NCBI GenBank assembly: GCA_949484645.1
Contig: CASYOT010000002.1
Location: 66,912-130,911, forward strand
Source: an uncultured Lachnospiraceae bacterium
GTDB taxonomy: Bacteria > Bacillota > Clostridia > Lachnospirales > Lachnospiraceae
Reading direction: 5' to 3'
DNA: 64,000 bases
The position numbers and the translations under genes were made by a program. Every line of letters begins with the position of its first letter. Position 1 is the first letter of the stretch. Below the pieces are notes generated by a model. That model had not been told where the DNA came from. It saw only the letters and a list, made by a program, of their open reading frames with translations, and did no database searches. This document shows, one piece after another, positions 25,044-63,235 of this stretch.

Positions 25044-25252
25044 GCCGTCTATGCTAGCGGGGCATTGTGATGGGATTTAGGGATTCTTATGTGTTCCTGC
25101 AACATACAGCAATGCCCTGCCATGGACGGCAGGGCAAACTGCAGCCACGCCATGGAAGGCGTGTCTGCAGTGGTTGCGTCCGAAACCAAAAAGCAGAAGG
25201 AACACATTAGAACCCCTTAATCCCAGAACACAGCCCCGCTAGCATAGACGGC
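25044..25252. repeat. Large imperfect palindromic intergenic element, family copy 3 (inverted orientation relative to copy 1)
   Basis: Termini gccgtctatgctagcggggc / gccccgctagcatagacggc. Shares the 17-mer ttgtgatgggatttagg with copy 1 (reverse complement) and the ccatggacggc core. Flanked by A6 and T6 runs. Confidence 0.8.
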
Positions 25253-25655: not shown

Positions 25656-26585
25656 ATGGGATTGAAAACTAAGATAACAGAATTGCTTGGAATAGAATAT
25701 CCAATTATACAAGGCGGCATGGCGTGGGTAGCTGAGTATCATCTGGCTTCGGCTGTTTCAGAAGCCGGAGGGCTTGGGATCATCGGGGCGGCCAGCGCGC
25801 CCGCGGAAGTTGTCAGGGAACAGATCCGCAAGGTAAGGGAGCGGACAGACCGGCCGTTTGGCGTAAATGTCATGCTGATGAACCCGAATGCCCCAGAGGT
25901 GGCTTCGGTTGTCGCAGAGGAAGGCGTAAAAGTTGTTACGACGGGAGCGGGGAATCCGGCTAAATTTATGGAATTATGGAAAAACGCTGGGATAACAGTA
26001 ATGCCTGTTGTAGCAAGCGTAGCGATGGCGCGTATGATGGAAAAAGCAGGCGCAGATGCGGTTGTGGCGGAAGGAACAGAGTCCGGCGGGCATATTGGAT
26101 CTGCGACGACAATGACATTAGTTCCCCAGATAGTGGATGCAGTAAATATTCCGGTTGTGGCAGCCGGAGGGATTGGAGACGGGAGAGGCGTTGCGGCTGC
26201 ATTTATGTTAGGTGCCGAGGCGGCGCAGATGGGCACGCGTTTTATCGTCGCAAAAGAATCTATTGTGCATGAAAATTATAAAGAAAAAGTAATTAAGGCA
26301 AAAGACATTGATTCAGAAGTGACCGGAAGAAGCACGGGACATCCGATTCGCGTTCTTAGGAATAAGATGACGCGGGAATACCTGAAAATGGAAGCGGACG
26401 GCGTGGGGCTTGATGAGTTGGAGCAGTTGACGTTAGGCTCTTTGCGGAAAGCCGTAATGGACGGCGATGTGGTCAATGGAAGCCTGATGGCAGGCCAGAT
26501 TGCAGGTTTGGTAGGAAAAGAGCAGACTTGCCGCGAAATGATAGAAGAAATTATAAAACAAGCAAAAGAGCTGCTTGGCAGATAG
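25656..26585 (+). CDS. fabK: Enoyl-[ACP] reductase II, FMN-dependent (FabK; nitronate monooxygenase fold)
   Basis: Strong match to S. pneumoniae FabK (ITELLGIEYPIIQGGMAWVA..AGGLGIIG; VKVVTTGAGNP). Position within the fab cluster. Confidence 0.9.
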   Translation: MGLKTKITELLGIEYPIIQGGMAWVAEYHLASAVSEAGGLGIIGAASAPAEVVREQIRKVRERTDRPFGVNVMLMNPNAPEVASVVAEEGVKVVTTGAGNPAKFMELWKNAGITVMPVVASVAMARMMEKAGADAVVAEGTESGGHIGSATTMTLVPQIVDAVNIPVVAAGGIGDGRGVAAAFMLGAEAAQMGTRFIVAKESIVHENYKEKVIKAKDIDSEVTGRSTGHPIRVLRNKMTREYLKMEADGVGLDELEQLTLGSLRKAVMDGDVVNGSLMAGQIAGLVGKEQTCREMIEEIIKQAKELLGR

Positions 26586-26603
26586 TGGGAGAGAGGAAAA
26601 GAA

Positions 26604-27518
26604 ATGGGTAAGCTGGTATTTATGTTCCCCGGTCAGGGTTCCCAGTATGTGGGAATGGGGAAAGAATTTTATGATTCGTTTCCGGTGTGCAGGGAAGTGT
26701 ATGAGTTGGCAAGTAAAGCTTCCGGTCTTGACGTTGCAAAACTTTGTTTTGAGGAAAATGAAAAAATCCATATCACAGAGTTCACGCAGATTGCCATGCT
26801 GGCAACGGAAGCGGCTTTGTTTGCCGCTTTAAAAGAAAAGGGAATTGCGCCAGACGTTACGGCGGGGCTTAGTCTGGGAGAGTATGGGGCATTGATAGCT
26901 TCCGGCGTAATGGAAATGGAAGATGCATTTTCGATTATTCGAAAAAGAGGAATTTTTATGCAAAACGCAGTTCCTTCCGGCGGGGCGATGAGCGCTGTGA
27001 TGGGATTAGAAGCCGCTCCGATTGAAGAAATCTGCCAAAAGACGGAAGGCATAGTGTCGATTGCAAATTATAACTGCCCGGGGCAAATTGTAATTACCGG
27101 AGAGCAGGCGGCTGTCGATGCGGCGGGCATGGCTTTAAAGGAAGCGGGCGCGAGAAGGATTGCGCCTTTAAAAGTAAGCGGGCCGTTCCATTCCCAGATG
27201 CTTTCCGGCGCTGGAGAGCAGCTTGCGCAGGCGCTTGAGGAAGTGCAAATTGCGGATACATTTCTTCCATATGTAGCAAATGTCACAGCGGATTATGTGA
27301 CGGAAGCGTCCGAGGTAAAACCGCTTTTGGCGAAACAAGTGGCGTCCAGCGTCCGCTGGCAGCAGACAATAGAGCGTTTAATTGCGGACGGGGCGGACAC
27401 GTTTGTGGAAATTGGGCCGGGTAAGACGCTTTCCGGCTTTATGCGGAAAATAAATCGGGAAATGACGGTTTACAATATTGATAAGCTGGAGGATTTTATT
27501 AAGTATGTTGACAGGTAA
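26604..27518 (+). CDS. fabD: Malonyl-CoA:ACP transacylase
   Basis: FMFPGQGSQYVGMG, active-site GLSLGEY, Q/H motifs. Length 304 aa. Confidence 0.9.
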   Translation: MGKLVFMFPGQGSQYVGMGKEFYDSFPVCREVYELASKASGLDVAKLCFEENEKIHITEFTQIAMLATEAALFAALKEKGIAPDVTAGLSLGEYGALIASGVMEMEDAFSIIRKRGIFMQNAVPSGGAMSAVMGLEAAPIEEICQKTEGIVSIANYNCPGQIVITGEQAAVDAAGMALKEAGARRIAPLKVSGPFHSQMLSGAGEQLAQALEEVQIADTFLPYVANVTADYVTEASEVKPLLAKQVASSVRWQQTIERLIADGADTFVEIGPGKTLSGFMRKINREMTVYNIDKLEDFIKYVDR

Positions 27519-28245
27519 AATCGCGTTAGTGACAGGGGCAAGCCGCGGAATCGGCGCGCAGATTGCAAAATCCCTTGCGGAATGCGGCGCGGCGGTAATT
27601 ATAAATTATAATGGTTCGGCGGATAAGGCGCAGGCGGTTGCAGATGAGATTTATTCGGCAGGCGGCAAGGCGGAGATTTATCCATGCAATGTGGCGGATT
27701 TTGCGGCGTGTGGCGAAATGATTCAGGCAATCGTCAAAAAGCATGGGCGTTTAGATATTCTGGTGAATAATGCTGGGATTACAAAAGACGGTCTTTTGAT
27801 GAAAATGTCGGAAGAAGAATTTGATCAGGTAATTTCGGTGAATTTAAAAGGCGCATTTCAGACGATACGCCATGCATCCCGTTATTTTTTAAAACAGAGA
27901 AGTGGGAAAATTATCAATATTTCTTCCGTTTCCGGCATTTTGGGAAATGCGGGGCAGGCAAATTATGCATCGAGCAAAGCTGGCATGATAGGTCTGACAA
28001 AAAGCGTGGCGAGAGAGCTTGCGTCACGGGGAATTACGGTCAATGCCATTGCGCCCGGCATGATTGCAACGGACATGACAGACGCTATGACGCAGGAAGC
28101 TAGGGAAAAAATGACGGAAGCAATCCCGCTTGGACGAATGGGGACGCCGGAAGACGTCGCAAACATGGCGGTATTTCTAGCTTCTCCGAAATCGGATTAT
28201 ATTACGGGGCAGGTGTTTGCAGTGGACGGCGGCATGGCGATATAA
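27505..28245 (+). CDS. fabG: 3-oxoacyl-[ACP] reductase
   Basis: Short-chain dehydrogenase/reductase TGASRGIG Rossmann motif, NNAG, catalytic Y-x3-K (YASSKAG). Start chosen at the MLTGKIALV ATG (27505), which overlaps the fabD end. Confidence 0.9.
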   Translation: MLTGKIALVTGASRGIGAQIAKSLAECGAAVIINYNGSADKAQAVADEIYSAGGKAEIYPCNVADFAACGEMIQAIVKKHGRLDILVNNAGITKDGLLMKMSEEEFDQVISVNLKGAFQTIRHASRYFLKQRSGKIINISSVSGILGNAGQANYASSKAGMIGLTKSVARELASRGITVNAIAPGMIATDMTDAMTQEAREKMTEAIPLGRMGTPEDVANMAVFLASPKSDYITGQVFAVDGGMAI

Positions 28246-28255
28246 GGAGGAAATC

Positions 28256-29491
28256 ATGGGCAGAAGAGTTGTGGTAACAGGCATGGGGGCGATTACCCCG
28301 ATTGGGCTAAACATAGAGGAATTTTGGCAGTCAGTTCAGGCTGGGGAAATTGGCTTTGCGCCAATTACAAAATTCGATGCGTCGGAATATAAGTGCCGCA
28401 TAGCGGCGGAAGTAAAAGGTTTTGAAGGCAAAAACTTTATGGATGCAAAAGCGGCAAAACGCATGGAATTATTTTCGCAGTACGCAGTTGCGGCGGCAAA
28501 AGAAGCGCTTTGTGATTCTGGGATTGAGATGGAAAAGGAAGACCCCTATCGGGTAGGGACTGCGATTGGTTCCGGCATAGGAAGCCTGCAGGCAATCGAG
28601 CGGGAGCATAAAAAATTGATGGAAAAAGGGCCAAACCGGGTGAATCCGCTGTTTGTGCCGATGATGATAGGAAATATGGCGGCAGGAAACGTTTCCATTC
28701 AGTTTGGCTTAAAAGGAAAGAGCATTAACTCCGTAACGGCATGCGCCACGGGGACGAATACGATTGGGGAAGCGTTCCGCGCAGTTGCGTATGGCGAAGC
28801 AGATGTGATGGCGGCAGGCGGGACGGAAAGCTGTATTACGCCGATAGGAATTGCGGGATTTACGGCATTGACGGCGTTATCTGCCGTGGACGATCCGAAA
28901 AAATGTTCTCTGCCGTTTGATAAGGACAGAAGCGGCTTTGTGATGGGAGAGGGCGCGGCAGTTGTGATTTTGGAAGAATTGGAACATGCAAAGGCGAGAG
29001 GAGCCAAAATTTATGCGGAAGTCGTTGGCTATGGCTGTTCGTCTGATGCATATCATATTACTTCTCCGGAAGAAAGCGGGGCAGGGGCGGCAAGGGCGAT
29101 GACGAATGCGATTGCCGACGCCGGGTTAAAGCCGGAAGATATTCCTTATATTAATGCGCATGGGACGGGAACGCATCACAATGACTTGTTTGAAACAAGG
29201 GCGATAAAGCTTGCGTTTGGGGAACATGCAAAAAAATTAAGAATCAATTCCACGAAGTCGATGGTGGGCCATCTGTTAGGGGCGGCAGGGGCGATTGAAT
29301 TTGTCACTTGTGTGAAAGAGTTAGAAGAAGGGTATCTGCATCGCACGGTTGGTTATTCCAAGCCAGATGAAGAAATGGATTTGGATTACTGTAAGGAAGC
29401 GGCAACGGGCGATTATTCGTATGCGCTCAGTAATTCCCTTGGGTTTGGCGGCCACAATGCAAGCATTCTTCTGGCAAAGTATAAGGAGTAA
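28256..29491 (+). CDS. fabF: 3-oxoacyl-[ACP] synthase II
   Basis: [14 protein letters not shown]-terminus, active-site Cys (SVTACATG), HGTGT and KSMVGH motifs. AAGGAGG Shine-Dalgarno sequence before the ATG at 28256. Confidence 0.9.
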
Positions 29492-29493
29492 AA

Positions 29494-29931
29494 ATGGCAT
29501 TATTAAACACGAAACAGATTATGGAAATTATCCCGCACAGGCAGCCGTTTCTTTTGATAGACACGATAGAGGAGCTAGAAGCGGGCAAACGGGCGGTTGG
29601 GAAAAAATGCGTTAGTTTTAACGAGCCGTATTTTGCAGGGCATTTTCCAAACGAACCTGTTATGCCGGGGGTTTTAATTATAGAAGCAATGGCGCAGGCG
29701 GGCGCCGTCGCGATTTTAAGTAAGCCGGGGCAAGAAGGAAAAACGGCGTATTTTGCAGGCATACAGAACGCAAAATTTAAAAAGAAAGTAAAACCGGGCG
29801 ACGTTTTAACGCTTGAACTTGAAATTATAAAGGAAAAAGGGCCGATAGGAGTAGGAAAAGGAACGGCAAAAGTGGACGGCGCCCTTGTGGCGTCTGCGGA
29901 ATTGACATTTGCAATCGGAAATGGGGAATAA
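29494..29931 (+). CDS. fabZ: 3-hydroxyacyl-[ACP] dehydratase
   Basis: [11 protein letters not shown]...[17 protein letters not shown] hot-dog fold motifs. Length 145 aa. Confidence 0.9.
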
Positions 29932-29933
29932 AT

Positions 29934-31628
29934 ATGGCATCAATTTTTAAGAAAAGAAAGAACGCTCCGGTAAAAGAGAAAGAGACGGAAAATCCAAATC
30001 TTATTGTCTGTCCGTCCTGTAAAAATGATCTGGACAAATCCAAAGTGGTAGAGAATAAATATGTCTGCTATGAATGCGGCGCTTATTTCAGGGTGCGCAC
30101 CTCAAACCGGATCAAAATGGTAGCGGACGCTAAAAGCTTTACGCCATGGTTTGACGAAATGGAATCAAAAAACCCGCTGGATTTTCCGGATTACCATGAA
30201 AAAATCGAAGCGGCTCAGGAAAAAACGGGACTTCGTGAAGGAGTGACGGTTGGCGAGGCGAAAATTTATGGAGAGCCGGTTGCGCTTGGCATTTGCGATG
30301 CAAGGTTTTTAATGGGCAGCATGGGGCATGTGGTAGGCGAAAAAATTGCGTCAGCCGTGGAAAAAGCGACTGCGCTCAGGCTTCCCGTGGTTTTATTCTG
30401 CTGTTCGGGCGGAGCTAGGATGCAAGAGGGGATTATTTCCCTGATGCAGATGGCGAAAACATCAGCGGCGCTGAAGAAACATTCGGACGCAGGGCTTTTG
30501 TATATTCCGGTGCTGACGGACCCGACGACTGGAGGCGTAACGGCAAGTTTTGCTATGTTAGGCGATATTATTCTGGCGGAACCGGGGGCGCTGATTGGGT
30601 TTGCCGGACCGCGCGTCATAGAGCAGACCATTGGGCAGAAGCTCCCAGAAGGGTTCCAGAGGGCGGAATTTCAGTTGGAACATGGTTTTGCGGATGCGAT
30701 TGTAGAGAGAAAAGATTTAAAGAAAACGCTGTATAAGCTTCTGAAAATGCACACGGTAAAAGAAGGCTATGCGAACTTTATGCCGGCGACGGATTTTAAG
30801 TTTGAGCCAAGTGAACTGATGAAGGAACGCAGCGCAAAGAGTAAGAGTTTTAGCGCATGGGAGAAAGTAAAAGCGGCAAGGAATACAAGCCGTCTGGCTT
30901 CCGTGGATTATATAGAAGAAATATTTGACGGGTTTATAGAGCTGCATGGAGACCGCTGTTACAGAGATGATCCGGCGGTGGTAGGCGGCATTGCAAATCT
31001 TGACGGGCAGCCGGTAACAGTAATTGGCGTACATAAAGGCAGGGATTTAAAAGACTGCGTAAACCGCAACTATGGGATGCCTTCTCCGGAGGGGTACCGC
31101 AAAGCGCTCAGGCTGATGAAACAGGCGGAGAAATTCCACCGTCCGGTGATTACATTTGTCAATACGTCCGGCGCATTCTGCGGCATGGAAGCGGAAGAAT
31201 GCGGGCAGGGAGAAGCGATTGCAAGGAACCTGTATGAAATGTCTGATTTAAAAGTTCCGGTTTTATGTCTGATGATTGGAGAAGGCGGCAGCGGCGGCGC
31301 GCTTGCGCTGGCAGTCGGCAATGAAGTCTGGATGATGGAAAATGCAACCTATTCCATTTTGTCGCCAGAAGGGTTTGCATCGATTCTTTGGAAAGACGGA
31401 AAACGCGCAAAGGAAGCGGCGGAAGTTATGAAGATTACGGCTCAGGATTTGTACCGCTTGAAAGTCATTGAGAAAATTATTCCGGAATTTGGAAAAGCGG
31501 ATCAGGATTCACTGCATGATATTTCAATGTTTATCAAATATCATATCAGGGAATTTTTAGAACAGAGCGGCAAAATGAGCGGAACAGAGCTGGCAGAAGC
31601 CCGTTATCAGCGTTTCCGCGCGTTTTAA
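29934..31628 (+). CDS. accDA: Acetyl-CoA carboxylase carboxyltransferase, fused beta (AccD) and alpha (AccA) subunits
   Basis: N-terminal Zn-ribbon CPSC...CYEC of AccD. C-terminal half carries AccA motifs ([22 protein letters not shown]). Single 564-aa ORF. Confidence 0.8.
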
Positions 31629-31670
31629 CCAATAGAAAAAACGAAAAACGGCAGGTTAGAGGGAAAGCAG

Positions 31671-32636
31671 ATGAGAAGCAGAATATGTGGAACAGGAAGT
31701 GCGCTTCCAAAGCGGGAAGTGACCAATGATGATTTAAGCAAAATCATGGATACTTCAGATGAATGGATTAAGAGCCGGACAGGAATCGGCGCAAGGCATC
31801 TTGCAGTAGAGGAAACCCTTACGCAGTTAGCGGCGCAGGCGGCAAGTCAGGCATTACAGGAAGCCGGAGTCCAATCAGAAGAATTGGATATGATAATAGC
31901 GGCGACGCTTTCAGCGGATAATATTTTGCCGTCACTCTCCTGCGAACTCCAGCGGGAACTTGGCGCGAAAAATGCAGTCGCTTTTGACATTAACGCGGCG
32001 TGTTCCGGTTTTCTATTTGCGTTACAGACGGCGGATGCGTATATCCGCTGTGGGCAATGCCAAAAGATCCTTATCGTAGGCGGTGAAATTTTATCTAAAA
32101 TGGTGGACTGGAATGACCGATCCACTTGTGTCTTGTTTGGGGACGGCGCGGGCGCGGCAGTGATTCAGGGCTCAGAGACGCCGGGAATCCTTAGCAGCGT
32201 CTCTGGTTCTGACGGGGCAAAAGGAGAGGCGCTTTTCTGCAAAAACAGAGAAAACCATAACCCATATGTAAAAGGCGCCACAGAAGTTTCTTATGTATCC
32301 ATGAATGGGCAGGAAGTATATAAATTTGCAGTCCGTACAGTGCCGAAAGCGATTTTAGAGGCAGTGAACAAGGCAGGTCTTTTGATAGAAGACATTGACT
32401 TGTTTGTACTGCATCAGGCAAATATGCGGATTATAGAGTCCGTTTCAAAGCGTCTGAAAGTTCCGATAGAGAAATTTCCGGTTAATCTGGAAACTTGCGG
32501 AAACATTTCGGCAGGCAGTGTTCCAGTTCTTTTAGATGCGGTAAATCAGAAAGGGATGCTGAAAAAAGGAGATAAAATTGTTCTTGCAGGGTTTGGCGCG
32601 GGCCTGTCGTGGGGAGCGTGCGTATTGGTTTGGTGA
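31671..32636 (+). CDS. fabH: 3-oxoacyl-[ACP] synthase III
   Basis: Active-site Cys in AACSGF, His/Asn region (HQANMRI...GNISAGSVP). Length 321 aa. Confidence 0.9.
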   Translation: MRSRICGTGSALPKREVTNDDLSKIMDTSDEWIKSRTGIGARHLAVEETLTQLAAQAASQALQEAGVQSEELDMIIAATLSADNILPSLSCELQRELGAKNAVAFDINAACSGFLFALQTADAYIRCGQCQKILIVGGEILSKMVDWNDRSTCVLFGDGAGAAVIQGSETPGILSSVSGSDGAKGEALFCKNRENHNPYVKGATEVSYVSMNGQEVYKFAVRTVPKAILEAVNKAGLLIEDIDLFVLHQANMRIIESVSKRLKVPIEKFPVNLETCGNISAGSVPVLLDAVNQKGMLKKGDKIVLAGFGAGLSWGACVLVW

Positions 32637-44468: not shown

Positions 44469-44506
44469 ATGGAAGAACAAAAGCAATATGAGTGAAAATC
44501 CATAAG

Positions 44507-44550
44507 GGGACGCCAAGTTTGACGCTGTTCAGGCTTGGCGTTTTTTTGTT
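44507..44550 (+). terminator. Intrinsic terminator
   Basis: Stem acgccaag...cttggcgt followed by T7. Confidence 0.7.
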
Positions 44551-44856
44551 TGTTTTTAATACTCGAAGAATCGTTGACAAAAGAACGTTATGGAAGTATA
44601 ATAAAATAAACCAAAAATCGGCTGTTTTTTTTGTATATTATTTATGAGATGTCCGATCCGAGCCATTCTTCCGAATGTAACAAAGATACAATCGAGGGAG
44701 AGGTTTTTTTATCTATGGAAATCTTCCCTGTATGAGCGGAAATCTCAGAGGTTTTAGCAGAGGACAGGGGATTTTATAAAAGGAACCGCAGACTTACGGG
44801 GTAAACGCCTGCGGTTTGATGTAACTAATCATTTGTTTTAAAAAGGAGGAATTGTA

Positions 44857-47800
44857 ATGAAAGAAACGGGCAGTAAAAGAAAAATACGTTCTTTTATAGC
44901 GGGAACATTGGCTTTTCTGCTGATGGTTACGACTGCATTGTCAGGCTTTCCACCCATTCAGGCGCAAGCGGCTGCGAGGAAAATCTGGCATCGTGTAGAA
45001 ACAGGAAGCGGCAATGGGAATGGGCATGCGTATTCAGATGCATCGACGAATCCGGCAGCCGTATTATTGCATCAGGATAAGATTGAATGGGAGTCGACAT
45101 TTAACGTTACTTATGAAAAACAGGGTGATGCGCCTAATAAAGCGCGGCTGGGGTTTTTCTATTCTTACTTAAATGATTCGAATTGGCTGTACGTAGGATC
45201 GAATCCGGATGGGAGCTGGTATTATGAATATAACTTAGGTGGAAGTACAGGTTATCCGTCATTAGAAGGGCTTCCAGCAATTACGGATACCAGTCGCGCA
45301 GAGATTTCTGTATCGGTAGCCCGCGAGGCATTGACGGTGACAGTAAACGGCGTGAAAGTTCAGGTAGCAAATAAAGATGTTTTTGAAGGTTTAAAGGAGG
45401 CTATCGGCAATGAAGGAAGACCGGGGTTCCGCGCTGGAAAAAATGGGACTGAGCATACGTTCTTCCGTTTTACAGATGCGAAAACCAAAGGCGCTCCCCT
45501 TAGTGATGACGGCTGGAGTTTTTTGGCTGACTGCGAAGGGCAGGTACATAATCAGGAAACGATTCCAGTATATTCCGTGACAGGCGCCGTGAAAGATGGG
45601 AACACTCCGGTTGAAAATGCGGTTGTGCGCGTTGGGGAGGAAAGCGTGAGGACGGCAGCGGACGGTTCGTTTTCTCTTTCGGTGGAACAGGGAACGTATG
45701 TGGTGTCTGTATCTGCATCAGGCTATCAGGCATATTCCCAAGAGAATGTGGAAATAAATGCGGATAAAGATCTGGGAGAGATTGCGCTTACCAAAAAGGA
45801 TGCTGTTAATTACGAGTATTTTATTAGCAATGGAACAATAAAAGCTGCAGTCAGCAACGAATTTCCGCAGGTGTTCCAATATGAATTGACTTTAGGTGAA
45901 GACGGCGCAAAGAAAATATTTGCCGGACAGGAAACCAAATTAACGGAAATGAGAATTGGGGCCTATAATCCTGCTTATGGAGAGGATAAATCGGTTCCGC
46001 AGGTCAATTTAAAGGACATAGAGCCAACCTTAAAAAGTTTTGAAAAAGAAGAGGATCATGCAGTTTATGTGATGAATCTAAAAGACGCAGAAGCGCAGAT
46101 TGATTTTGACATGACAGTGAAGATTTCAGTTTCCGAGAATGATTTAATCTGGGAAGTGACAAATATCACAAAGAATAGCGGCTGTGTGAAAATTAATACG
46201 ATCGACGTGCCGGAATTAAATCTTGTGACGATTACAGACTTACAGGTGGATACCCAGTTTATGGGCGCGGTAATTTCCGGCGATACAAATGCGATCGGCG
46301 ACAGGGAGATTACCTTTGAAGATGGGTTTGTTGCGAACAATTCCGGCGGTTACGCATATGGTTTTTTGTCTGCTGACGGGATTAGCGCAGGCGTATGGAG
46401 TAATTCTGAGATGGTAAGTGACAACCGTCTTGTGCGTAATAACGGCGTGGACAGTATGTCTCTGACAAGCGCGGCATGGTATTATGATTATAATAATGAC
46501 GCGACTTTCAGTTATACAGATTATACGGACGCTACAAAAAATAAAACCCTGACATTTTCGGATTATGATTCTGTAGCGGGCGTAGCGGGCGGCGTTCCTA
46601 TTAGTGAACTGCCTTGCGCAAAGGTATGTTTTGCCGCTGATGAGAATGAGGATAGCGTTGTAGACTGGCAGGACGGCGCGATTGCATACAGGGATATTAT
46701 GAATAACCCGTATGGATCGGAAAACACAAAAGATCTTGTGAATTACCGTATTTCCATGAACTTTAACAGTCAGGCGACAAATCCATATTTAAAGACGGCT
46801 GACAATATTAAAAAAGTATATCTTGCAACGGACGGGCTTCCGCAGGCAGTTATGATGAAAGGATACGGAAGTGAAGGCCATGATTCTGCGAACTCCGAGT
46901 ATGGATATATTGCGGATCGTCTTGGCGGTTTGGAAGAATTGAAGCAGTTGAATACGATTGCGCATAATTATAATGTCCAGATGGGTATTCATATTAATGC
47001 GCAGGAATGTTATCCGGAAGCGCAGACATTTTCTAATGATTTGGTAAATGGCGTTAATTCCCGCGGCTGGGGCTGGTTAGATCAGTCTTATAACATTAAC
47101 CGCGCATATGACTTGGGCAGCGGCCTTCGTTACAAACGTTTATTACAGCTTTATGATCAGTTAAATGACACTTCGCTCTATGCAAATAAATGGCCGGGCG
47201 TTGCTGGCCAAGGTGAAGACGAGACTGTGGCGGACGCAGAGACGATTGCGCGCACAGTTGCAGAGAAGAAAAAGACAACGACGGAAAATCTTGATTTTAT
47301 GTATCTTGACGTATGGTACGGGGCTTCATGGGAGACGCGTAAAATTGCGCAGCAGTTTAACAGTCTGGGCTGGAGATTTTCTACAGAGTTTGGCGATGAA
47401 GGGGAATATGACTCGACATGGCAGCACTGGGCAACAGAAGGCCATTATGGCGGTTCCGCGAAGAAAGGGTTAAACAGTGATGTGATCCGTTTTATCCGGA
47501 ACCATCAGAAAGATTCTTTTGTATTGAACTATCCAAGCTATGGCGGCACAGCGGATAATCCTCTGCTCGGCGGATTTGACCTTGGCGGATTTGAAGGCTG
47601 GGGCGGCAGTAATGACAGTTTTAACGACTATATCATTAAGACATTTTTAGTAAACCTTCCAACTAAATTTTTACAGCATTATAAAGTGTATAAATGGGAA
47701 AATTATGAAGATGGCGGCTCCCCTGTTGGAAACCATGAAAAAGAAATTACGTTAGTAAATGATGATAAAACAGAGAAAGTGGTTGTAACGAGAAATGAAG

Positions 47801-50800
47801 ATCAGATTACAAGCGTAAGCGGCAACCAGAGTTTGGATTATGTAGAGCGGACAATCAAATTAAACGGCAAAAAAGTGCTGGATAATGCAACTTATCTGCT
47901 TCCATGGACAGATTGGGAAACGGATGAAGAAAAATTATACCACTTCAACTATGAAGGCGGCGCAACTACATGGGAATTGCAGGATAGCTGGAAAAACCTT
48001 GGGAGTGTTACGGTTTACGCTTTGACAGATGTAGGAAGAACAGCTAAGAAGACAGTTCCGGTTACAAATGGCAGCATTACGTTAGATGCGGATGCAAAGA
48101 TGCCGTATATTGTTGTAAAAGATGAAACCTCAGAAAAGAAGGAAATCAAAGAGCCATGGAGTGAGCATGCGCATGTAGTGGATTCCGGATTTAATAATTA
48201 CAGCGGCGTAAACGTTGATTTAGGTGAGGAAGGCCCAGAGTGCCCAGAATGTAAGAAAGAAGATAAAACTACAAAAACAAAGTATAATTATTATATGGGA
48301 TCAAAATTCGTGTGTCCGGTATGCAAATACGAGATGGGCGCAGATGCTGCGGATAAGTTCAAATATGAAGAACAGGGAAATCCTTTAGATAAAGAAATTT
48401 GGAGCGGTGACATAAACGATGTGAAGGTCGTGCGCATCGGATCTACGGGAAATAAATATCTTCAGATGGGCAGTGAGACAGAAACACAATCCGTATCTAC
48501 AACAATCTCAGACTTAGAGCCGGGGACGGATTATGTAGCTCAGGTTTATGTGGAAAATAAGAGTGACGCAAAAGCATGGATTAAGGTAACGGGAGGAAGC
48601 GAGGACGTTTCTAACTATACACTGAGATCTCTTGCGGAAAATTATGTACAGTGTGACGCACATAGCAGGAGAGCGGTATCTGGAAGCAGGATGCAAATTA
48701 TGCAGGTTCCTTTTACTGCGGACTCTTCCACAGCGACATTGACTTTAGAACGTGAGGCAGGCGAGGATATCACATATTTTGACGATATTCGTATCGTAGA
48801 TAAAAAAATCAATAATATTCAGGCGGACGGGAGCTTTAAACAGGATTTTGAATCTGTTGTATCGGGAATGTATCCATTTGTATTAGGACCGGCGCAGGGA
48901 GTTACAGACCATGTAACTCATTTGTCTGAGCTTCATGCTCCATATACACAGTCAGGCTGGGGCGGCAAAGAATCCTTAGATGACGTTTTGGAAGGAAAAT
49001 GGTCGTTAAAACATCATGGAAACAATACAGGAATCATTTACCGGACGATTCCGCAGAATCTCCATTTTGAAGCAGGTCAGACGTATAATATCAGTTTTGA
49101 CTATCAGTCAGGTCAAAGAGGTCAATATTATATTGTCATTGGCGAAGGCGACGAAGTGATTCAGACTTTAGATTATATGGAGAATACAGCAGAGAATCCG
49201 TTAGGCGGGCCATCTGAAACAAAGACTTATGAATTTAGGATGGTAGGCGCTGACAGTGGGCAGTCATGGTTTGGTTTAGCAAGCGCGGCGGCATCTCTGT
49301 CAAAAGATGAAAATGATAATATTAAAGCATATGGTTTAGTGGATTTTGTTTTAGATAATCTGGAAGTGAAGAAAGTTGGCGTAAAGATTTCCGCTTCCGC
49401 TTCGACTGTAACGTCAGCCAAAGATCCGATTACATTGACAGCAGAGTTTTCCGATGAATTAGATGAATCTAATCTGGTTACATGGACTTCTTCTGATGAA
49501 AACGTTGTAAAGGTCGTTCCGGACCCGGAAGACAGCAAGATATGTCACGCATATTTTGTAGGTTTTGGGAATGCGACTATTACGATGAGAACTATGGTAG
49601 GAGTGCAAGAAATTGAATTGCCGTGGGCGGTTTCTTTCCCAGAGATTTTTGAACTTCCATCAGAGGAGCAGAAGAAGGCAGAATGGGCAGGGGTTTATGC
49701 AAATACAGAATCTGCGACTGATAATGACACTAAGGAGAAAGCGATTGATGGAGAGTCAGGCACTCAATGGCATTCGCAGTGGGCGTCGCCTGCATTTGTC
49801 GTATCGGAAACGAATCCGGCTCTTTTAACAGTAAAAATTGCAGATGGAGACAATATTTCAAATTACAACAGAGTTACGATACAACAGAGAACTGGTAATG
49901 TTAATGGTTTAGTTAAAAAATATAAATGTGTCGTTGGGGATGAGTTTGACGAAACAACTCATACTGTTTCAGGGAATGTATATACTACGGATGTTATTAC
50001 TGCGAAAAAGACAGGTCAGGGAGAAAGAGAAGTTTGTGTGCTTCCGGCAGGAACTGCTGGTAAGTATTTACAGATTCAGGTACTTGAAGGTGAAGGAACT
50101 TTCGCATCGATTGCAGAACTGGAATTGGATAAAGCAGGCACAAATAATACAGATGAAGAACAAGGTTATTTTGAAGAGAATGGCAGTAGCTGGTCAAATA
50201 AAATAACAGAAGCTCTGGAAGCAACGCTGGAAAATGCAGACGCTGTAGAGAAGGCCGGACGAGGAGATTATTCAGAAGAAAGCTGGGCTGTGTTTGAAGC
50301 GGCTCTAAACGCTGCAAAGGATCGACCGGCAGACGCTACGCCACAGCAATTATTAGAATTGCAGCAGGATCTTGTTTTGGCGATCTCTAATTTAACGGTT
50401 TCATTGGATAAGGCAAGAACGGAATTTGAAAAGGTCTTTGATGAAGCAAAGAACATATATAATGCGGGCCAAGGCAATTATACAGATGCGAGCTGGGAGT
50501 CATTTAAGAAGGTTTATGAAGATGTAGATGTAATAAAAGATTCCCAAGATCCAAAAGTTTTGGTAAAAGGCAGGCAGATGTTAGAAAAAGCTTTGGAAGG
50601 ATTGAAAGAAAAAACTCCAGAACAGATTGAATTTGAGCAGGCGCAGCAAGAATTGAAACAATCTATGGACTCTGCATCAAAGAAGATTAGCGAGGGTCAG
50701 GGAAATTATACGACGACAAGCTGGAAGAAATTAGTCAAAGCATACGAGGATGCAAAAGAAGGGAAAAATTCTGAGGATAAAGAAACGTTGAAAGCATTGA

Positions 50801-51852
50801 CAAAAGCTTTGGACGATGCGATGAAAGGTTTAGCAGAGAAATCTGATGACCTGATAGAAGCAGAAGAAGCTTTGGCAAAGACAATCGAATCTGCAGGAGA
50901 AAAAATTGAAGCAGGTCAGGGAGAGTATACAAACGCAAGTTGGAAAGCATTCCAAGATGCCTACAATGCAGCCTTGAAAGGGAATGAGTCAGATGACAAG
51001 GCAGAAGTGCAGAAGCTGGATAATGCTTTAAAGAAAGCAATGGCAGGCTTAATTACAAATGCCCAGCAGGCAGAAAACGATAAAGCGGCGGCAATCCAAT
51101 CTGCAAAGAATGCCTTGCAGAATGAAATAAACGCTTCCAAAACTAAATATAGCGCAGGAGCTAAGAAATATACATCTGCAACATGGACTCCATTTAAAAA
51201 AGCTTACGATGCTGCAGTTGCAGGTAAAAATTCAACTGATGTAAACAAGTTGAAGAAGCTAAGAACTGATCTATATAACGCAAGGATAAAATTAAAAATT
51301 CAACCGCCGGCATCGTCCTCTGGTACAGGATCTACACAAACGAAGAAATTAAGCAAGTCAGATTATACAGATGTAAAAGACATTCGTTATACAGTAATCG
51401 ATCCGGAGAAATGTACAGTTGAAGCGGCAGGCTTAAAAAAGAATATGAAAAAAGCCAACATTCTGTCGACAGTAGAAGTGAAGGGCATAGAATGTAAAGT
51501 AACTCAAATTAAAGCCAACGGCTTTAAAAAGTACACGAAATTAACGACTGTCACAATTGGCGCAAATGTTGAGAAGATTGGAAAAGCCGCTTTTTCAGGA
51601 TGTAAATCCATCACAAAGCTTACAATCGGCGCAAATGTGAAATCAATAGATGCGCAGAGTTTCTCAGGTTGTAAAAAAATTAAGAATATTGTGATTAAGT
51701 CAAAGAAACTTACTTCGATTGGGAAGAAAGCATTTAAAGGCGTCACTGCAAAAGCAAAAGTGAAACTTCCGAAACTGAAGGGCAGCGCCGCTAAAAAATT
51801 AAAACAAAAGTTGATAAAAGCAGGCGTGAATAAGAAAGCAAAAATAAAGTAA
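44857..51852 (+). CDS. Giant secreted multi-domain glycoside hydrolase, GH101-like (putative endo-alpha-N-acetylgalactosaminidase) with CarboxypepD_reg-like, CBM32/F5-8 type C, Big_2, multiple FIVAR repeats, BspA-type leucine-rich repeats and a Lys-rich C-terminal tail
   Basis: Signal peptide. Central region contains YLDVWYG ... FSTEFGDEGE, consistent with a GH101 nucleophile and acid/base. Galactose-binding-like motif KAIDGESGTQWHSQW. Six or seven repeats GQGNYTxxSWxxFxxAYxxA (FIVAR). Leucine-rich repeats TIGANVEKIGKAAFSGCKSI. Length 2331 aa. Confidence 0.55.
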   Translation: MKETGSKRKIRSFIAGTLAFLLMVTTALSGFPPIQAQAAARKIWHRVETGSGNGNGHAYSDASTNPAAVLLHQDKIEWESTFNVTYEKQGDAPNKARLGFFYSYLNDSNWLYVGSNPDGSWYYEYNLGGSTGYPSLEGLPAITDTSRAEISVSVAREALTVTVNGVKVQVANKDVFEGLKEAIGNEGRPGFRAGKNGTEHTFFRFTDAKTKGAPLSDDGWSFLADCEGQVHNQETIPVYSVTGAVKDGNTPVENAVVRVGEESVRTAADGSFSLSVEQGTYVVSVSASGYQAYSQENVEINADKDLGEIALTKKDAVNYEYFISNGTIKAAVSNEFPQVFQYELTLGEDGAKKIFAGQETKLTEMRIGAYNPAYGEDKSVPQVNLKDIEPTLKSFEKEEDHAVYVMNLKDAEAQIDFDMTVKISVSENDLIWEVTNITKNSGCVKINTIDVPELNLVTITDLQVDTQFMGAVISGDTNAIGDREITFEDGFVANNSGGYAYGFLSADGISAGVWSNSEMVSDNRLVRNNGVDSMSLTSAAWYYDYNNDATFSYTDYTDATKNKTLTFSDYDSVAGVAGGVPISELPCAKVCFAADENEDSVVDWQDGAIAYRDIMNNPYGSENTKDLVNYRISMNFNSQATNPYLKTADNIKKVYLATDGLPQAVMMKGYGSEGHDSANSEYGYIADRLGGLEELKQLNTIAHNYNVQMGIHINAQECYPEAQTFSNDLVNGVNSRGWGWLDQSYNINRAYDLGSGLRYKRLLQLYDQLNDTSLYANKWPGVAGQGEDETVADAETIARTVAEKKKTTTENLDFMYLDVWYGASWETRKIAQQFNSLGWRFSTEFGDEGEYDSTWQHWATEGHYGGSAKKGLNSDVIRFIRNHQKDSFVLNYPSYGGTADNPLLGGFDLGGFEGWGGSNDSFNDYIIKTFLVNLPTKFLQHYKVYKWENYEDGGSPVGNHEKEITLVNDDKTEKVVVTRNEDQITSVSGNQSLDYVERTIKLNGKKVLDNATYLLPWTDWETDEEKLYHFNYEGGATTWELQDSWKNLGSVTVYALTDVGRTAKKTVPVTNGSITLDADAKMPYIVVKDETSEKKEIKEPWSEHAHVVDSGFNNYSGVNVDLGEEGPECPECKKEDKTTKTKYNYYMGSKFVCPVCKYEMGADAADKFKYEEQGNPLDKEIWSGDINDVKVVRIGSTGNKYLQMGSETETQSVSTTISDLEPGTDYVAQVYVENKSDAKAWIKVTGGSEDVSNYTLRSLAENYVQCDAHSRRAVSGSRMQIMQVPFTADSSTATLTLEREAGEDITYFDDIRIVDKKINNIQADGSFKQDFESVVSGMYPFVLGPAQGVTDHVTHLSELHAPYTQSGWGGKESLDDVLEGKWSLKHHGNNTGIIYRTIPQNLHFEAGQTYNISFDYQSGQRGQYYIVIGEGDEVIQTLDYMENTAENPLGGPSETKTYEFRMVGADSGQSWFGLASAAASLSKDENDNIKAYGLVDFVLDNLEVKKVGVKISASASTVTSAKDPITLTAEFSDELDESNLVTWTSSDENVVKVVPDPEDSKICHAYFVGFGNATITMRTMVGVQEIELPWAVSFPEIFELPSEEQKKAEWAGVYANTESATDNDTKEKAIDGESGTQWHSQWASPAFVVSETNPALLTVKIADGDNISNYNRVTIQQRTGNVNGLVKKYKCVVGDEFDETTHTVSGNVYTTDVITAKKTGQGEREVCVLPAGTAGKYLQIQVLEGEGTFASIAELELDKAGTNNTDEEQGYFEENGSSWSNKITEALEATLENADAVEKAGRGDYSEESWAVFEAALNAAKDRPADATPQQLLELQQDLVLAISNLTVSLDKARTEFEKVFDEAKNIYNAGQGNYTDASWESFKKVYEDVDVIKDSQDPKVLVKGRQMLEKALEGLKEKTPEQIEFEQAQQELKQSMDSASKKISEGQGNYTTTSWKKLVKAYEDAKEGKNSEDKETLKALTKALDDAMKGLAEKSDDLIEAEEALAKTIESAGEKIEAGQGEYTNASWKAFQDAYNAALKGNESDDKAEVQKLDNALKKAMAGLITNAQQAENDKAAAIQSAKNALQNEINASKTKYSAGAKKYTSATWTPFKKAYDAAVAGKNSTDVNKLKKLRTDLYNARIKLKIQPPASSSGTGSTQTKKLSKSDYTDVKDIRYTVIDPEKCTVEAAGLKKNMKKANILSTVEVKGIECKVTQIKANGFKKYTKLTTVTIGANVEKIGKAAFSGCKSITKLTIGANVKSIDAQSFSGCKKIKNIVIKSKKLTSIGKKAFKGVTAKAKVKLPKLKGSAAKKLKQKLIKAGVNKKAKIK

Positions 51853-51923
51853 AAGGCAAAATCACAAAGTTATCATTAGAAAGGGGCATACGTTTGTATG
51901 CCTCTTTCAAGTAGAGAATAAGA

Positions 51924-52679
51924 ATGGAACGAACGGAAAGAGAAAAGCAAATAGAGTATGAAACATATCTGGCGAAGCGGCGGGCTTTGAAAAGAAAGAA
52001 ACGGCAGAGGAAAGCGGCTTTTCAGATACTAATGTCACTTATAATCATTATTATAATAGGAATCATAGGCTGGCAATCTGTGAAATTCATAAAAGGCAGA
52101 AATGGAAAGCCTGTTTCAGTAAAATCAGAATTGCCAAAAAAAATTGTAAAAACGCCGCCGGATTACGACATACAGTATTTAACGGTTAATCCTTATTCAA
52201 GGCCGGGGATTCCGTTAGAAAAAGTGAACGGGGTTGTTGTGCATTATACGGCAAACCCTTCCACAACAGCGCAGCAAAACAGAGATTATTTTGAGGGATT
52301 GAGTTTGTCAGGTGAAACGTCCGTCAGCAGTCATTTTGTAATAGGAATAGAGGGGGAAGTGATTCTGTGCATTCCCTGTGATGAAATTGCATATGCTTCA
52401 AATGAGAGAAATGCGGATACCATCTCTATTGAGTGCTGTATTCCGGACGAATCAGGAAAATTTGCTGATGCGACATACGATACATTAATCCATTTACTGG
52501 CATGGCTGGCGGGAAAATATGATTTGGAAACAGATGACATTATCCGTCATTATGACGTTACGGGGAAAAACTGCCCAAAATATTATGTGGAGTATGAATC
52601 CGCATGGGAAGCATTGAAAATGGACGTCAGAAATTATATAGAACATAACGGAGCGATTGAGGAAACGACAGAGGAGTAA
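51924..52679 (+). CDS. N-acetylmuramoyl-L-alanine amidase (Amidase_2/PGRP domain) with an N-terminal membrane anchor
   Basis: VVHYTANP...SSHFVIG...ISIECC...IIRHYDVTGKNCPKYY Zn-amidase motifs. Length 251 aa. Confidence 0.8.
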   Translation: MERTEREKQIEYETYLAKRRALKRKKRQRKAAFQILMSLIIIIIIGIIGWQSVKFIKGRNGKPVSVKSELPKKIVKTPPDYDIQYLTVNPYSRPGIPLEKVNGVVVHYTANPSTTAQQNRDYFEGLSLSGETSVSSHFVIGIEGEVILCIPCDEIAYASNERNADTISIECCIPDESGKFADATYDTLIHLLAWLAGKYDLETDDIIRHYDVTGKNCPKYYVEYESAWEALKMDVRNYIEHNGAIEETTEE

Positions 52680-61894: not shown

Positions 61895-63235
61895 TTATTT
61901 ATTGCTCCTGCGCCAAATCTTTAATTTCTCCGCTTCTGTAATTAATTCATCGCGGAAATCAGGATGCGCAATCGAAATTAAGGCTTCTGCGCGCTGCCAT
62001 GCGGAAAGTCCTTTTAAATTGACTTTTCCGTATTCCGTTACAATGTAATGGACGTTTGCGCGTGTGTCCGTTACAATCGATCCGGGATTTAACGTAGGTA
62101 AAATACGGGATTTTAACTGCCCGTCTTTGGTTTTAAAGGAAGAAGAACAGCAGATGAAGCTTTTCCCGCCATTGGAAAGATAAGCTCCCAGCACAAAATC
62201 AAGCTGCCCGCCTGCTCCGCTGATATGTTTCGTTCCGGCCGACTCGGCATTGATCTGGCCAAATAAATCCAAATCCACTGCGTTGTTAATGGAAATAAAG
62301 TTATCCAAAGCGGAAATGGAGCGTATGTCATTTGTATAGCTTACTGGGGCGCTGAGGAGTTCCGGGTTGTCGTCTATATAGTCGTACATTTTTTTCGTTC
62401 CGCATCCAAATGCAAAGGCTTGGCGGAAACGATCGATATTTTTCTTTGACCCATTAATTTTTCCGGCTTTTGCAATGTCGACAAAAGCGTCAACGTACAT
62501 TTCCGTGTGAACGCCGAGGTCTTTTAAATCGGATTCTGCAATCATAGAGCCGACTGTATTTGGCATGCCGCCAATGCCAAGCTGTAAACATGCGCCGTTT
62601 GGAATTTCTTCTACGATTAATTTTGCAACTGCAATATCGACGTCGGTTGGCGCGCCGCCTGAACCTAATTCTCCGATAGGCGGGTTTTCCCCTTCGACAA
62701 TAAAGTCAACGTCTGAAATATGGACGCTGTTTTCAAAACCGCCAAGACAGCGCGGCATATTTTGGTTGACCTCAACAATGATTTTTTTAGAGGTTTCGCA
62801 TACCGCCATCATATGGGAAGCGTTTGGCCCGAAATTGAAATATCCATGCGCATCCATTGGAGAAACCTGAAACATCGCTACGTCGTCAGGCGTGTCTGAT
62901 TCACGGTAGTAACGCGGCAGTTCGGAATATCGGATTGGCGCATAATATGCGCAGCCGCGGGCAATTAATTTACGTTCAATGCCGGACATATGCCATGAGT
63001 TCCATGTAAAATGCTCTCCTGAATCTTCCCGTTCAAAAACGGCGGGCGTCTTTAGGAGAATACCGCCCCTTAGGTTAATGTCTTTCAGCTCGTCCGTCCG
63101 TTTAGCTAATGCTTTGTCCAAAGCGTCTACGGTTGCGTTACACCAGCCGTAATCGACCCAGTCGCCGGATTTAATGACTTTTACTGCTTCTTCTGCGCTT
63201 ACAAGTTTCTGCTCATATTCTTTTGCGTAATCCAT
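61895..63235 (-). CDS. but: Butyryl-CoA:acetate CoA-transferase (acetyl-CoA hydrolase/transferase family)
   Basis: Very close to Roseburia/Eubacterium But as recalled ([71 protein letters not shown]). Length 446 aa. Confidence 0.85.

Follow-up and report, generated by a model that had tools for sequence, protein, structure and literature searches.

The GH101 gene and its scaffold

The window, by which we mean the whole 64-kb stretch of DNA that was analysed, carries on its forward strand an ATG-started open reading frame that is genuine and encodes a GH101 enzyme. Its extent agrees exactly with that given in an earlier note on this DNA, and the sequence strings cited there are all found in the protein (YLDVW at aa 816, STEFG at aa 842, and the discoidin-type motif AIDGESGTQWHS at aa 1629). 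The gene and the signals around it are the following:

44574..44602, + strand: promoter-like site, sigma-70 consensus TTGACA-17-TATAAT, 12/12 match
about 8 nt 5' of the GH101 start, + strand: strong RBS, AAAGGAGG
44857..51852, + strand: GH101 gene, 2331 codons plus stop
44857..44970, + strand: signal peptide, aa 1-38, likely cut after AQA, judged by eye
51885..51902, + strand: palindromic hairpin GGCATACGTTTGTATGCC then TCTTTC, weak candidate terminator, 33 nt past the stop codon

The gene is predicted to have its own perfect-consensus promoter, located 3' of the terminator of a ferritin-like gene (44502-44549) and conserved in the orthologue, since the -35 and -10 elements are kept, together with the RBS, in the syntenic orthologue locus L010. 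The leader of about 250 nt is conserved with the orthologue in sequence islands only. Its folding energy is ordinary (z = -1.0), and no regulatory RNA was matched in it by Rfam at E<=1. The N-terminus, MKETGSKRKIRSFIAGTLAFLLMVTTALSGFPPIQAQA followed by AA after the likely cut, reads by eye as a Sec signal peptide with its n, h and c regions in order, and this peptide is 82% identical in the orthologue P0002. The GH101 part of the protein is arranged as follows:

44971..45561, + strand: GH101 N-terminal domain, aa ~39-235 (PF17995, 26.7 bits vs 25)
45574..45771, + strand: CarboxypepD_reg / PEGA-like beta-sandwich, aa 240-305 (PF13620, E 1.5e-11)
45823..46668, + strand: galactose-mutarotase-like domain, aa 323-604 (PF18080, E 8e-43)
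46669..47652, + strand: GH101 catalytic (beta/alpha)8 domain, aa 605-932 (Pfam, PDB, homologue alignment)
47653..48042, + strand: GH101 C-terminal beta-sandwich, domain 4, aa 933-1062 (PF17451, E 1.3e-28)
48214..48372, + strand: 53-aa in-frame insert, aa 1120-1172, CPEC-x20-CPVC, zinc-ribbon-like, unique to the species
48382..48780, + strand: GH101 domain 5, aa 1176-1308 (PF21466, E 1.7e-38)
48781..49308, + strand: galactose-binding-domain-like domain 6, aa 1309-1484 (PF17974, E 9.7e-54)

The Pfam GH101 profile (PF12905) scores 335.5 bits against a cut-off of 25 (E 3.2e-100), and the best PDB matches are exclusively GH101 structures, namely EngBF (2zxq, E 5.6e-199) and SpGH101 (3ecq, E 3.5e-198). 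The scaffold domains of the family are all found by Pfam (Gal_mutarotas_3, Glyco_hyd_101C, GH101_dom-5, GalBD_like and GH101_N): PF18080, PF17451, PF21466 and PF17974 are each far over threshold in the whole-protein scan, and GH101_N passes its own when the N-terminus is scanned alone. Pfam and the EngBF and SpGH101 structures thus agree on the GH101 assignment proposed in the earlier note, and the catalytic region belongs neither to GH129 nor to another fold. By its family and its active site, as read from the sequence, the protein is a bona fide GH101 endo-alpha-N-acetylgalactosaminidase. It is nevertheless not an SpGH101 orthologue, since it scores 793.6 bits on the NCBIfam model endo_SpGH101 (NF040533), below the curated cut-off of 2900.

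The founding structural model of the family, EngBF from Bifidobacterium longum JCM 1217 (PDB 2ZXQ), has the same domain order from the mutarotase-like to the GalBD-like domain, is 54-57% identical over the catalytic stretches aa 584-770 and 802-921, and carries an identical catalytic D/E pair, Trp lid and motifs, but it has neither the Cys4 insert nor the LRR module described below. SpGH101, or EngSP, of Streptococcus pneumoniae (PDB 3ECQ, 5A55-5A5A) shares the fold and the mechanism and is 42% identical in domains 5-6. A segment of about 30 aa (aa 772-802) is missing in both EngBF and SpGH101 and common to the homologues P0002-P0039 (40-63% identity).

The protein is a GH101 of an already known type. 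The Tyzzerella nexilis GH101 pool, which reportedly goes back to Kulinich et al. 2020 (Carbohydr Res 490:107962), precedes it in the Lachnospiraceae. Members of this pool such as Tn2105 are biochemically characterised, according to PMC11861894. What is unusual here is a putative surface-attachment module, uncharacterised and highly positive, and the small species-specific insert with four cysteines.

This insert, overlooked in the earlier note, sits at the entry to domain 5 and is missing in 39 homologues, the syntenic orthologue P0002 included. When 1.84 billion representative proteins were searched with HMMER, the insert matched only a fragment of its own gene and two junk repeat proteins; no donor sequence was found by tblastn and blastn of the window and 11 loci, its borders are free of terminal repeats, direct or inverted, of the mobile-element kind, and its composition shows no anomaly. 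About 15 Zn-ribbon families of Pfam match it weakly, none close to threshold, and AlphaFold2 models the insert alone with low confidence (pLDDT 59).

Considering the protein as a whole, we think it quite probable that it is a Sec-secreted, cell-surface GH101 (EC 3.2.1.97) that releases core 1 and is held non-covalently by its LRR_5 module.

The presumed C-terminal stalk and the basic LRR_5 module

The AlphaFold2 model of the C-terminal part (pLDDT 90.7) consists of an Ig-like domain, a CBM32, five three-helix bundles, a linker, and an LRR module with a folded cap:

49381..49638, + strand: Ig-like beta-sandwich, aa 1509-1594 (AlphaFold2 strands, pLDDT ~90)
49684..50130, + strand: CBM32 / discoidin domain, aa 1610-1758 (PF00754, 31.3 bits; PDB CBM32 matches)
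50152..51288, + strand: five FIVAR-like three-helix bundles, aa 1766-2144, presumed stalk (AlphaFold2)
51289..51351, + strand: flexible P/S/G/T/K linker, aa 2145-2165 (pLDDT <50 at aa 2150-2162)
51352..51849, + strand: basic BspA-type LRR_5 module, aa 2166-2331 (PF13306, AlphaFold2, Foldseek)
51742..51849, + strand: K-rich strand-helix-strand cap, aa 2296-2331 (AlphaFold2)

The domain once read as Big_2 keeps its Ig-like fold in the model, but no Pfam PF02368 match is obtained at E<=1 over aa 1509-1628. Foldseek aligns the pair formed by the Ig-like domain and the CBM32 to the M. viridifaciens sialidase. The CBM32 had been recognised correctly: F5_F8_type_C, whose cut-off is 28.2 bits, reaches 31.3 bits on the isolated segment and 25.4 bits on the entire protein, and Foldseek matches it to the NanJ CBM32 (E 4e-9, TM 0.83) and, with TM of about 0.8, to CBM32s that bind galactose, LacNAc, Tn or LNB. 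From these fold matches, the domain would gather the enzyme on Gal/GalNAc-terminated glycans. The FIVAR array holds as a fold, with 15 helices modelled as 5 triplets, all five repeats being confident, around GQGNYT-type repeats centred at aa 1801, 1871, 1947, 2020 and 2101 that carry the Y-T-x-x-S-W motif. It does not hold at the PF07554 threshold of 29.2 bits, the scores being 18.1, 16.7 and 13.5 bits and falling on three of the five repeats. PF07554 is found as a precomputed annotation in the homologues P0006 and P0022, and the orthologue P0002 has one FIVAR-like repeat fewer. Judging from this architecture, the bundles and the flexible linker probably serve as a stalk.

The BspA-type leucine-rich repeats are confirmed by PF13306 LRR_5 (73.6 bits vs 27.7), by 4fs7 (E 8.7e-18, 31% identity over the aligned part) and by 4oju (TM 0.81-0.84). 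The fold is shared with the BspA-type LRR_5 gut proteins 4OJU, 4FS7, 4GT6 and 4H09, but these are structural-genomics proteins without an assigned function, whereas the present module is short, extremely basic, C-terminal and attached to a glycosidase. Its end had been described as a polylysine tail. It is indeed rich in lysine (14 K in the last 36 aa), but instead of a loose tail it forms a folded and conserved cap (pLDDT ~90). The module holds 41 Lys and has a net charge of +32 and a pI of 10.2, while the remaining mature protein is at about -120.

No LPXTG-like motif with a hydrophobic helix and a basic tail is present at the C-terminus. SpGH101 is LPXTG-anchored, and 15 of the 16 GH101 relatives without LRR end in an LPXTG-like or xTGD motif followed by a TM segment and a basic tail, the remaining one (P0040) having SLH. 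In all 23 LRR-bearing homologue clusters, the C-terminal module is charged +24 to +42 and comes without a sortase motif. The architecture, which had been called unusual, is therefore not so, recurring in at least 23 protein clusters. The +32 module and this exchange of modules strengthen the idea that a charge-based anchoring takes over from LPXTG; they support a non-covalent wall anchoring via LRR_5 without proving it. From the comparison and the charge, the module would replace the sortase signal of the relatives, holding the acidic enzyme to anionic wall polymers non-covalently. A literature search found no published evidence of LRR_5 binding to cell walls, and LRRs more typically bind proteins.

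The basic LRR could also serve for adhesion or docking, to anionic host mucin (sialylated or sulfated), to host proteins, to other bacteria or to a surface protein acting as its partner. The enzyme would then be released or only indirectly tethered. We regard this as possible though somewhat unlikely. BspA-type LRR proteins are classically adhesins, and the positive charge would suit sialo- or sulfomucins equally well; in addition, GH101s of the POGase type are reported to double as adhesins (PMC11861894). However, the module sits exactly where the relatives have sortase signals or SLH domains, behind the same stalk-linker order, and another anchor is kept in none of the 23 LRR-bearing clusters. 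Furthermore, P0058 and P0062, two large and unrelated exoproteins, end in the same capped module. When the retrieved loci were all scanned for the motif, the K-rich cap turned up on GH101 proteins only, and the 166-aa module used as a query gave mostly short fragments on short contigs, which say little on architectures. Wall anchoring through the LRR_5 module remains our preferred reading, and it would make this module a candidate new wall-anchoring device in Lachnospiraceae.

Active site and substrate range

The catalytic triad is intact, with D676, the nucleophile D818 (codon at nt 47308-47310) and the acid/base E844 (codon at nt 47386-47388). D818 in YLDVW and E844 in STEFG, the pair singled out in the earlier note, align with the nucleophile and acid/base of EngBF and SpGH101, which we take to be D789/E822 and D764/E796, respectively. 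The Trp lid GWGWLDQ is found at aa 737-743, and the family motifs are present as VDWQD (602-606), EGHD (673-676), IHIN (711-714) and RFIRN (878-882), the last one with I where the GH101 motif list, taken from PMC11861894, has L. The catalytic residues, the lid and D1351 are invariant across 39-40 homologues, and M634 and F636 are near-invariant in the same set.

By homology, the (beta/alpha)8 domain would cut the GalNAc-alpha-Ser/Thr bond by a retaining double displacement, with D818 as nucleophile, E844 as acid/base and D676 completing the triad. W738 and W740 would shut as a lid over Gal-beta1,3-GalNAc, and we infer from this that at least the core-1 disaccharide is freed from desialylated mucin-type O-glycans.

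Three positions that gate the -2/-3 subsite, overlooked until now, are of another kind in this protein. With a residue offset calibrated on 5a55, which gives back the three published residues K1156, E1253 and D1254, the SpGH101 residues M616, F618 and D1254 are retained as M634, F636 and D1351, whereas Q868, K1156 and E1253 are replaced by G916 in the catalytic domain, Q1265 in domain 5 and T1350 in domain 6. EngBF has a Gln at the G916 position, and its E1294, which is SpGH101 E1253 by literature correspondence, is T1350 here. These replacements may affect specificity, and strict core-1 specificity is not to be assumed, since they fall on the -2 Gal contacts and the putative -3 border.

This could mean that the GH101 fold and chemistry are kept while the substrate range is wider or shifted, towards substituted core 1 (for example alpha2,3-sialyl-T) or other cores, so that the enzyme may be a naturally occurring equivalent of the POGases or of the SpGH101 variants obtained by engineering. 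We consider this unlikely, even though several observations point to it. G916, Q1265 and T1350, in a mapping checked on 5a55, stand where SpGH101 has the residues that hold Gal O3/O4 and shut the -3 subsite. Sialyl-T hydrolysis by SpGH101 is lifted by each of the substitutions Q868G, E1253K/G and K1156S/G/N, up to 250-fold when they are combined (PMC12550630). The POGases, which are Actinomycetota GH101s with a broad O-glycanase and adhesin activity according to PMC11861894, are like our protein in being large multidomain enzymes with F5/8 type C modules and in having residues that are small or neutral at the positions of Q868 and E1294, and POGase AS has similar residues at the Q868, K1156 and E1253 positions (PMC12550630; PMC11861894). 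The three positions also covary in the clade, as GG/Q/T or G/R/D, and one genome carries the two types as tandem paralogues, which suggests a functional differentiation.

Against a wider range, EngCP of Clostridium perfringens and T. nexilis Tn2105, two enzymes of gut Clostridia that have, like this protein, a Gly at the Q868 position, are reported without activity on sialyl core 1 (PMC11861894). The POGase motifs (AWGWMNQ, WANE/DEAY and YSAWAWV/IEI for Motifs 1 to 3) are not those of the query, which reads GWGWLDQ, WATEGHY and YVAQVYVENK at these places; its Motif-1 fits the O-glycanase pattern, and its Motif-2 is unlike that of the POGases. Finally, D1351, the equivalent of D1254, which is required for T-antigen activity, is kept. 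Release of at least core 1 by an otherwise ordinary GH101 is the reading that we retain.

GH129 and GH101 are related in structure (PMC8106489), but nothing specific favours either a GH101-like lectin or adhesin that has lost its catalysis or a GH129-type, exo-acting enzyme with specificity for Tn, and we reject both as very improbable, given the complete DDE triad, the Trp lid, the conservation of all the family motifs, and the absence of any GH129 family or structure among the Pfam and PDB matches.

A more far-reaching combination can be put forward tentatively, in which the basic LRR_5 module is a new class of non-covalent wall anchor and the G/Q/T residues, together with the Cys4 insert, make a GH101 that accepts sialylated or substituted core 1. 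If this were true, Lachnospiraceae would use a basic LRR_5 instead of sortase or SLH for giant exo-enzymes (the GH101s, P0058 and P0062). In any case, the natural G/Q/T variants and their G/R/D paralogues, such as P0006, are candidates as glycomics tools to free substituted O-glycans.

Host and relatives

The host had been described as a butyrate-producing, Lachnospiraceae-like organism, which fits well: a butyryl-CoA:acetate CoA-transferase equivalog is encoded within the window, the relatives of the protein come from Lachnospiraceae MAGs, and the neighbour proteins are found in an NCBI 'Eubacterium sp.' MAG. The direct mucin foraging deduced from the enzyme is not borne out within the 64-kb window, since no gene for a GNB/LNB phosphorylase, a sugar transporter, a sialidase or any other function in glycan utilisation is found there. 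A mucin context is offered by a related Eubacterium sp. locus, in which a gene for an M60-like peptidase is followed some 7 kb downstream by two GH101 genes in tandem.

GH101 enzymes make the final cut that frees the O-glycan cores from mucin. They are rare, GH101/GH129 having been found in 15 of 397 gut genomes in one survey (PMC5583593). The exact protein is present on 83 contigs and its host recurs in mouse-gut metagenomes. A scan of species-representative genomes gave relatives at 57% identity. An intact and strongly promoted GH101 in a butyrate producer would tie the harvest of mucin cores to butyrate production in a mouse model. At least one close relative is labelled merely 'leucine-rich repeat protein' by NCBI, so automated annotation under-reports the GH101 function.

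Gene, family membership and active site

Three variant features stand out in the 2331-aa GH101 protein: a basic LRR module that is a candidate anchor, a G/Q/T subsite, and a Cys4 insert. The ORF is single and uninterrupted (44857..51852, + strand, ATG start, 2331 codons); its coordinates, and all the sequence strings quoted in the earlier note, were found at the expected positions. It is preceded by a strong RBS and by a promoter that comes right after the terminator of the ferritin-like gene upstream:

44574-44602, + strand, promoter, perfect sigma-70 consensus TTGACA-17-TATAAT, ~255 nt 5' of the GH101 start

Both promoter hexamers, as well as the RBS, are kept in L010, the locus of the syntenic orthologue P0002. 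The leader of ~250 nt (promoter and leader together 44574-44856; L010 9653-10000) contains several stretches that both species have conserved; it has no Rfam match, and its folding energy is not unusual. Judged by eye, the N-terminus has the layout of a Sec signal peptide (basic, hydrophobic, AQA/A). Public databases already contain the sequence, and they list at least one relative simply as 'leucine-rich repeat protein'.

Six of the Pfam matches are to domains specific to GH101, and they follow the canonical order.

Pfam domains of the GH101 protein
N-terminal, first in domain order: GH101_N
after GH101_N: CarboxypepD_reg
aa 323-604: Gal_mutarotas_3
aa 605 to ~932: Glyco_hydro_101 (E 3.2e-100)
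aa 933-1062: Glyco_hyd_101C
aa 1176-1308: GH101_dom-5
aa 1309-1484: GalBD_like

The top solved structures are the GH101 enzymes of Bifidobacterium longum (EngBF, 2zxq, E 5.6e-199) and Streptococcus pneumoniae (SpGH101, 3ecq, E 3.5e-198), and glycosidase families other than GH101 were absent from the structure matches. The earlier note had proposed GH101, to be abandoned if another GH family or none was found; since Pfam, NCBIfam and PDB all lead to GH101, the assignment holds, and the protein is, as judged by every sequence-testable criterion, a GH101 member. Identity reaches 54-57% with EngBF (over aa 584-770 and 802-921, the parts of the catalytic domain that align) and 42% with SpGH101 (domains 5-6). 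Orthology to SpGH101 is ruled out, as the NCBIfam SpGH101 model scores 793 bits, well under its orthologue cut-off of 2900. A segment of ~30 aa within the catalytic domain (aa 772-802, 47170-47262) interrupts the Pfam GH101 match, leaving two parts; EngBF and SpGH101 lack it, but it is conserved in P0002-P0039, the homologues aligning at 40-63% identity. GH101 enzymes of Lachnospiraceae have been described before, in the T. nexilis pool (Kulinich 2020, as cited in PMC11861894).

Residues were transferred with chain-index offsets of 318 for 2zxq and 313 for 5a55 (SpGH101), the latter verified by the published K1156, E1253 and D1254, which land on K, E and D. On this calibrated alignment, D818 (YLDVW) is the predicted nucleophile and E844 (STEFG) the predicted acid/base, exactly the pair first suggested, and D676 (EGHD) completes the predicted 'DDE triad'. 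A Trp lid, GWGWLDQ (aa 737-743), and the motifs VDWQD, EGHD, IHIN and RFIRN, from the GH101 list in PMC11861894, were also found. Because catalytic residues, lid and motifs are (near-)invariant among 40 homologues, the enzyme should be active, via the family's retaining double-displacement mechanism (PMC10949244).

Variation at the -2/-3 subsites

In SpGH101, the galactose at -2 is held through its O3/O4 by K1156, E1253 and D1254, and the putative -3 subsite is bordered by Q868 and E1253. Sialyl-T hydrolysis was increased by each of Q868G, E1253K/G and K1156S/G/N, up to ~250-fold when combined, and the POGases, an Actinomycetota subclass, naturally carry small/neutral residues at these positions (PMC12550630; PMC11861894). 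In our protein, Q868/K1156/E1253 are replaced by G916/Q1265/T1350, while D1254 is kept as D1351; this variation was not in the earlier note. The three positions covary within the LRR-bearing clade (GG/Q/T versus G/R/D), and a Eubacterium sp. metagenome contig (L008) carries one GH101 of each type in tandem. This covariation, together with the tandem pair, points to specificity subtypes.

That the substitutions broaden specificity is a minority hypothesis: they fall where mutation of SpGH101 raises sialyl-T hydrolysis, but the natural Gly-868 enzymes EngCP and T. nexilis Tn2105 leave sialyl core 1 uncut (PMC11861894), and Motifs 1-3 of our protein do not match those of the POGases. Membership in the POGases themselves is ruled out by the same motifs. 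The L008 region (1-26513) forms a mucin-targeting cluster, in which a CBM32-bearing M60-like peptidase (1739 aa in the gene call, its gene overrunning the locus end) is followed ~7 kb on by the tandem pair (G/R/D and GS/Q/T) and then by another large LRR_5 protein.

Accessory domains and the basic LRR module

AlphaFold2 was run on aa 1497-2331 with an alignment of 22 homologues and gave a mean pLDDT of 90.7.

Domains modelled by AlphaFold2
aa 1509-1594: Ig-like sandwich
aa 1610-1758: discoidin sandwich
aa 1766-2144: five three-helix bundles (fifteen helices)
aa 2150-2162: disordered P/S/G/T linker
aa 2170-2331: LRR solenoid

In Foldseek, the Ig and CBM32 pair resembles the M. viridifaciens sialidase, the CBM32 resembles Gal-, LacNAc-, Tn- and LNB-binding modules (TM ~0.8), and the LRR resembles 4oju (TM 0.84). 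CBM32 and LRR_5 also exceed their Pfam thresholds, which bears out the CBM32 and BspA-type LRR labels. The Big_2 and FIVAR labels hold at the fold level only, since Pfam gives zero match for the former and 13.5-18.1 bits on three repeats, against a cut-off of 29.2, for the latter.

The final 36 residues, described as a polylysine tail, do hold 14 Lys, but they are modelled as folded (pLDDT ~90; strand 2301-2303, helix 2310-2321, strand) and are predicted to cap the LRR. The pattern AFKG..K.KV.LPKK..K..L.K.LKKAG..KKaKiK is conserved in 23/23 LRR-bearing GH101 clusters, and it also stands at the end of P0058 and P0062, giant exoproteins that are unrelated. The module of 166 aa contains 41 Lys (net charge +32, pI 10.2), versus ~-120 for the remaining mature protein; across the clade, it ranges from +24 to +42 and the rest from -75 to -146.

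A sortase motif is absent from our protein and all 23 LRR-bearing clusters. Of the 16 GH101 relatives that lack the LRR, by contrast, 15 have at their C-terminus an LPXTG-like or xTGD motif, a TM and a basic tail, and the distant P0040 carries SLH domains. The basic LRR thus sits where the relatives carry known wall anchors, and this swap makes the best case so far for charge-based attachment of the enzyme to the wall through the module. The absence of LPXTG noted earlier therefore stands, and the charge-based anchoring proposed with it is what we infer. The main rival is that the module would be a mucin- or protein-binding adhesin; no literature on an LRR_5 module as wall anchor was found. 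Directly 3' of the GH101 gene lies a membrane-anchored Amidase_2 gene (N-acetylmuramoyl-L-alanine amidase; 51924-52679, + strand), a pairing conserved in L010.

The Cys4 insert, host and neighbourhood

Between domains 4 and 5 lies a clean in-frame insertion of 53 aa (aa 1120-1172, nt 48214-48372), reading ...GPECPECKKEDKTTKTKYNYYMGSKFVCPVCKYEMG... and containing the motif CPEC-x20-CPVC. It is confined to our protein and its 98%-identical cluster and missing from all 39 other homologues; the syntenic orthologue (62% identity, same flanking genes) lacks it and has one helical repeat fewer. We found no homologue of the insert among 1.84 billion representative proteins, no donor in available DNA, no mobile-element termini at its borders and no anomaly of composition. 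Pfam gives weak zinc-ribbon matches only, and AlphaFold2 on the insert alone a low-confidence model (pLDDT 59); the insert would represent a Cys4 (zinc-ribbon-like) element inside a secreted enzyme. As every full-length member of the 90% cluster has 2331 aa, the insert is fixed in the species.

Identical copies of the protein are encoded on 83 contigs, among them some from mouse-gut metagenomes and from the MAG GCA_948576075.1. The neighbouring proteins are NCBI entries of a 'Eubacterium sp.' MAG, and relatives occur in Lachnospiraceae MAGs; these, together with the following gene, support the butyrate-producing Lachnospiraceae-like host proposed earlier:

61898-63235, - strand, butyryl-CoA:acetate CoA-transferase (TIGR03948 equivalog, 916.6 bits, cut-off 674.8)

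'Roseburia sp. 40_7' is among the members of its 90%-identity cluster. None of the genes flanking GH101 in the window is related to glycan use: upstream are UxaC, a glycosyltransferase, ALAD and the ferritin-like gene, with fab genes further upstream, and downstream are the amidase, a methyltransferase and an RND transporter. The fab genes together look like a complete cluster for type II fatty-acid synthesis (25656-32636, + strand: FabK-like NMO enoyl reductase, FabD, FabG, FabF, ACC carboxyltransferase, FabH), after which comes a MarR-type regulator gene. Three full-length, structured TwoAYGGAY RNA motifs (Rfam RF01731) score 120-137 bits, where the gathering score is 43 (6813-6978, -; 7609-7774, +; 25065-25231, +), and two of these copies flank the intergenic region at 6.8-7.8 kb.
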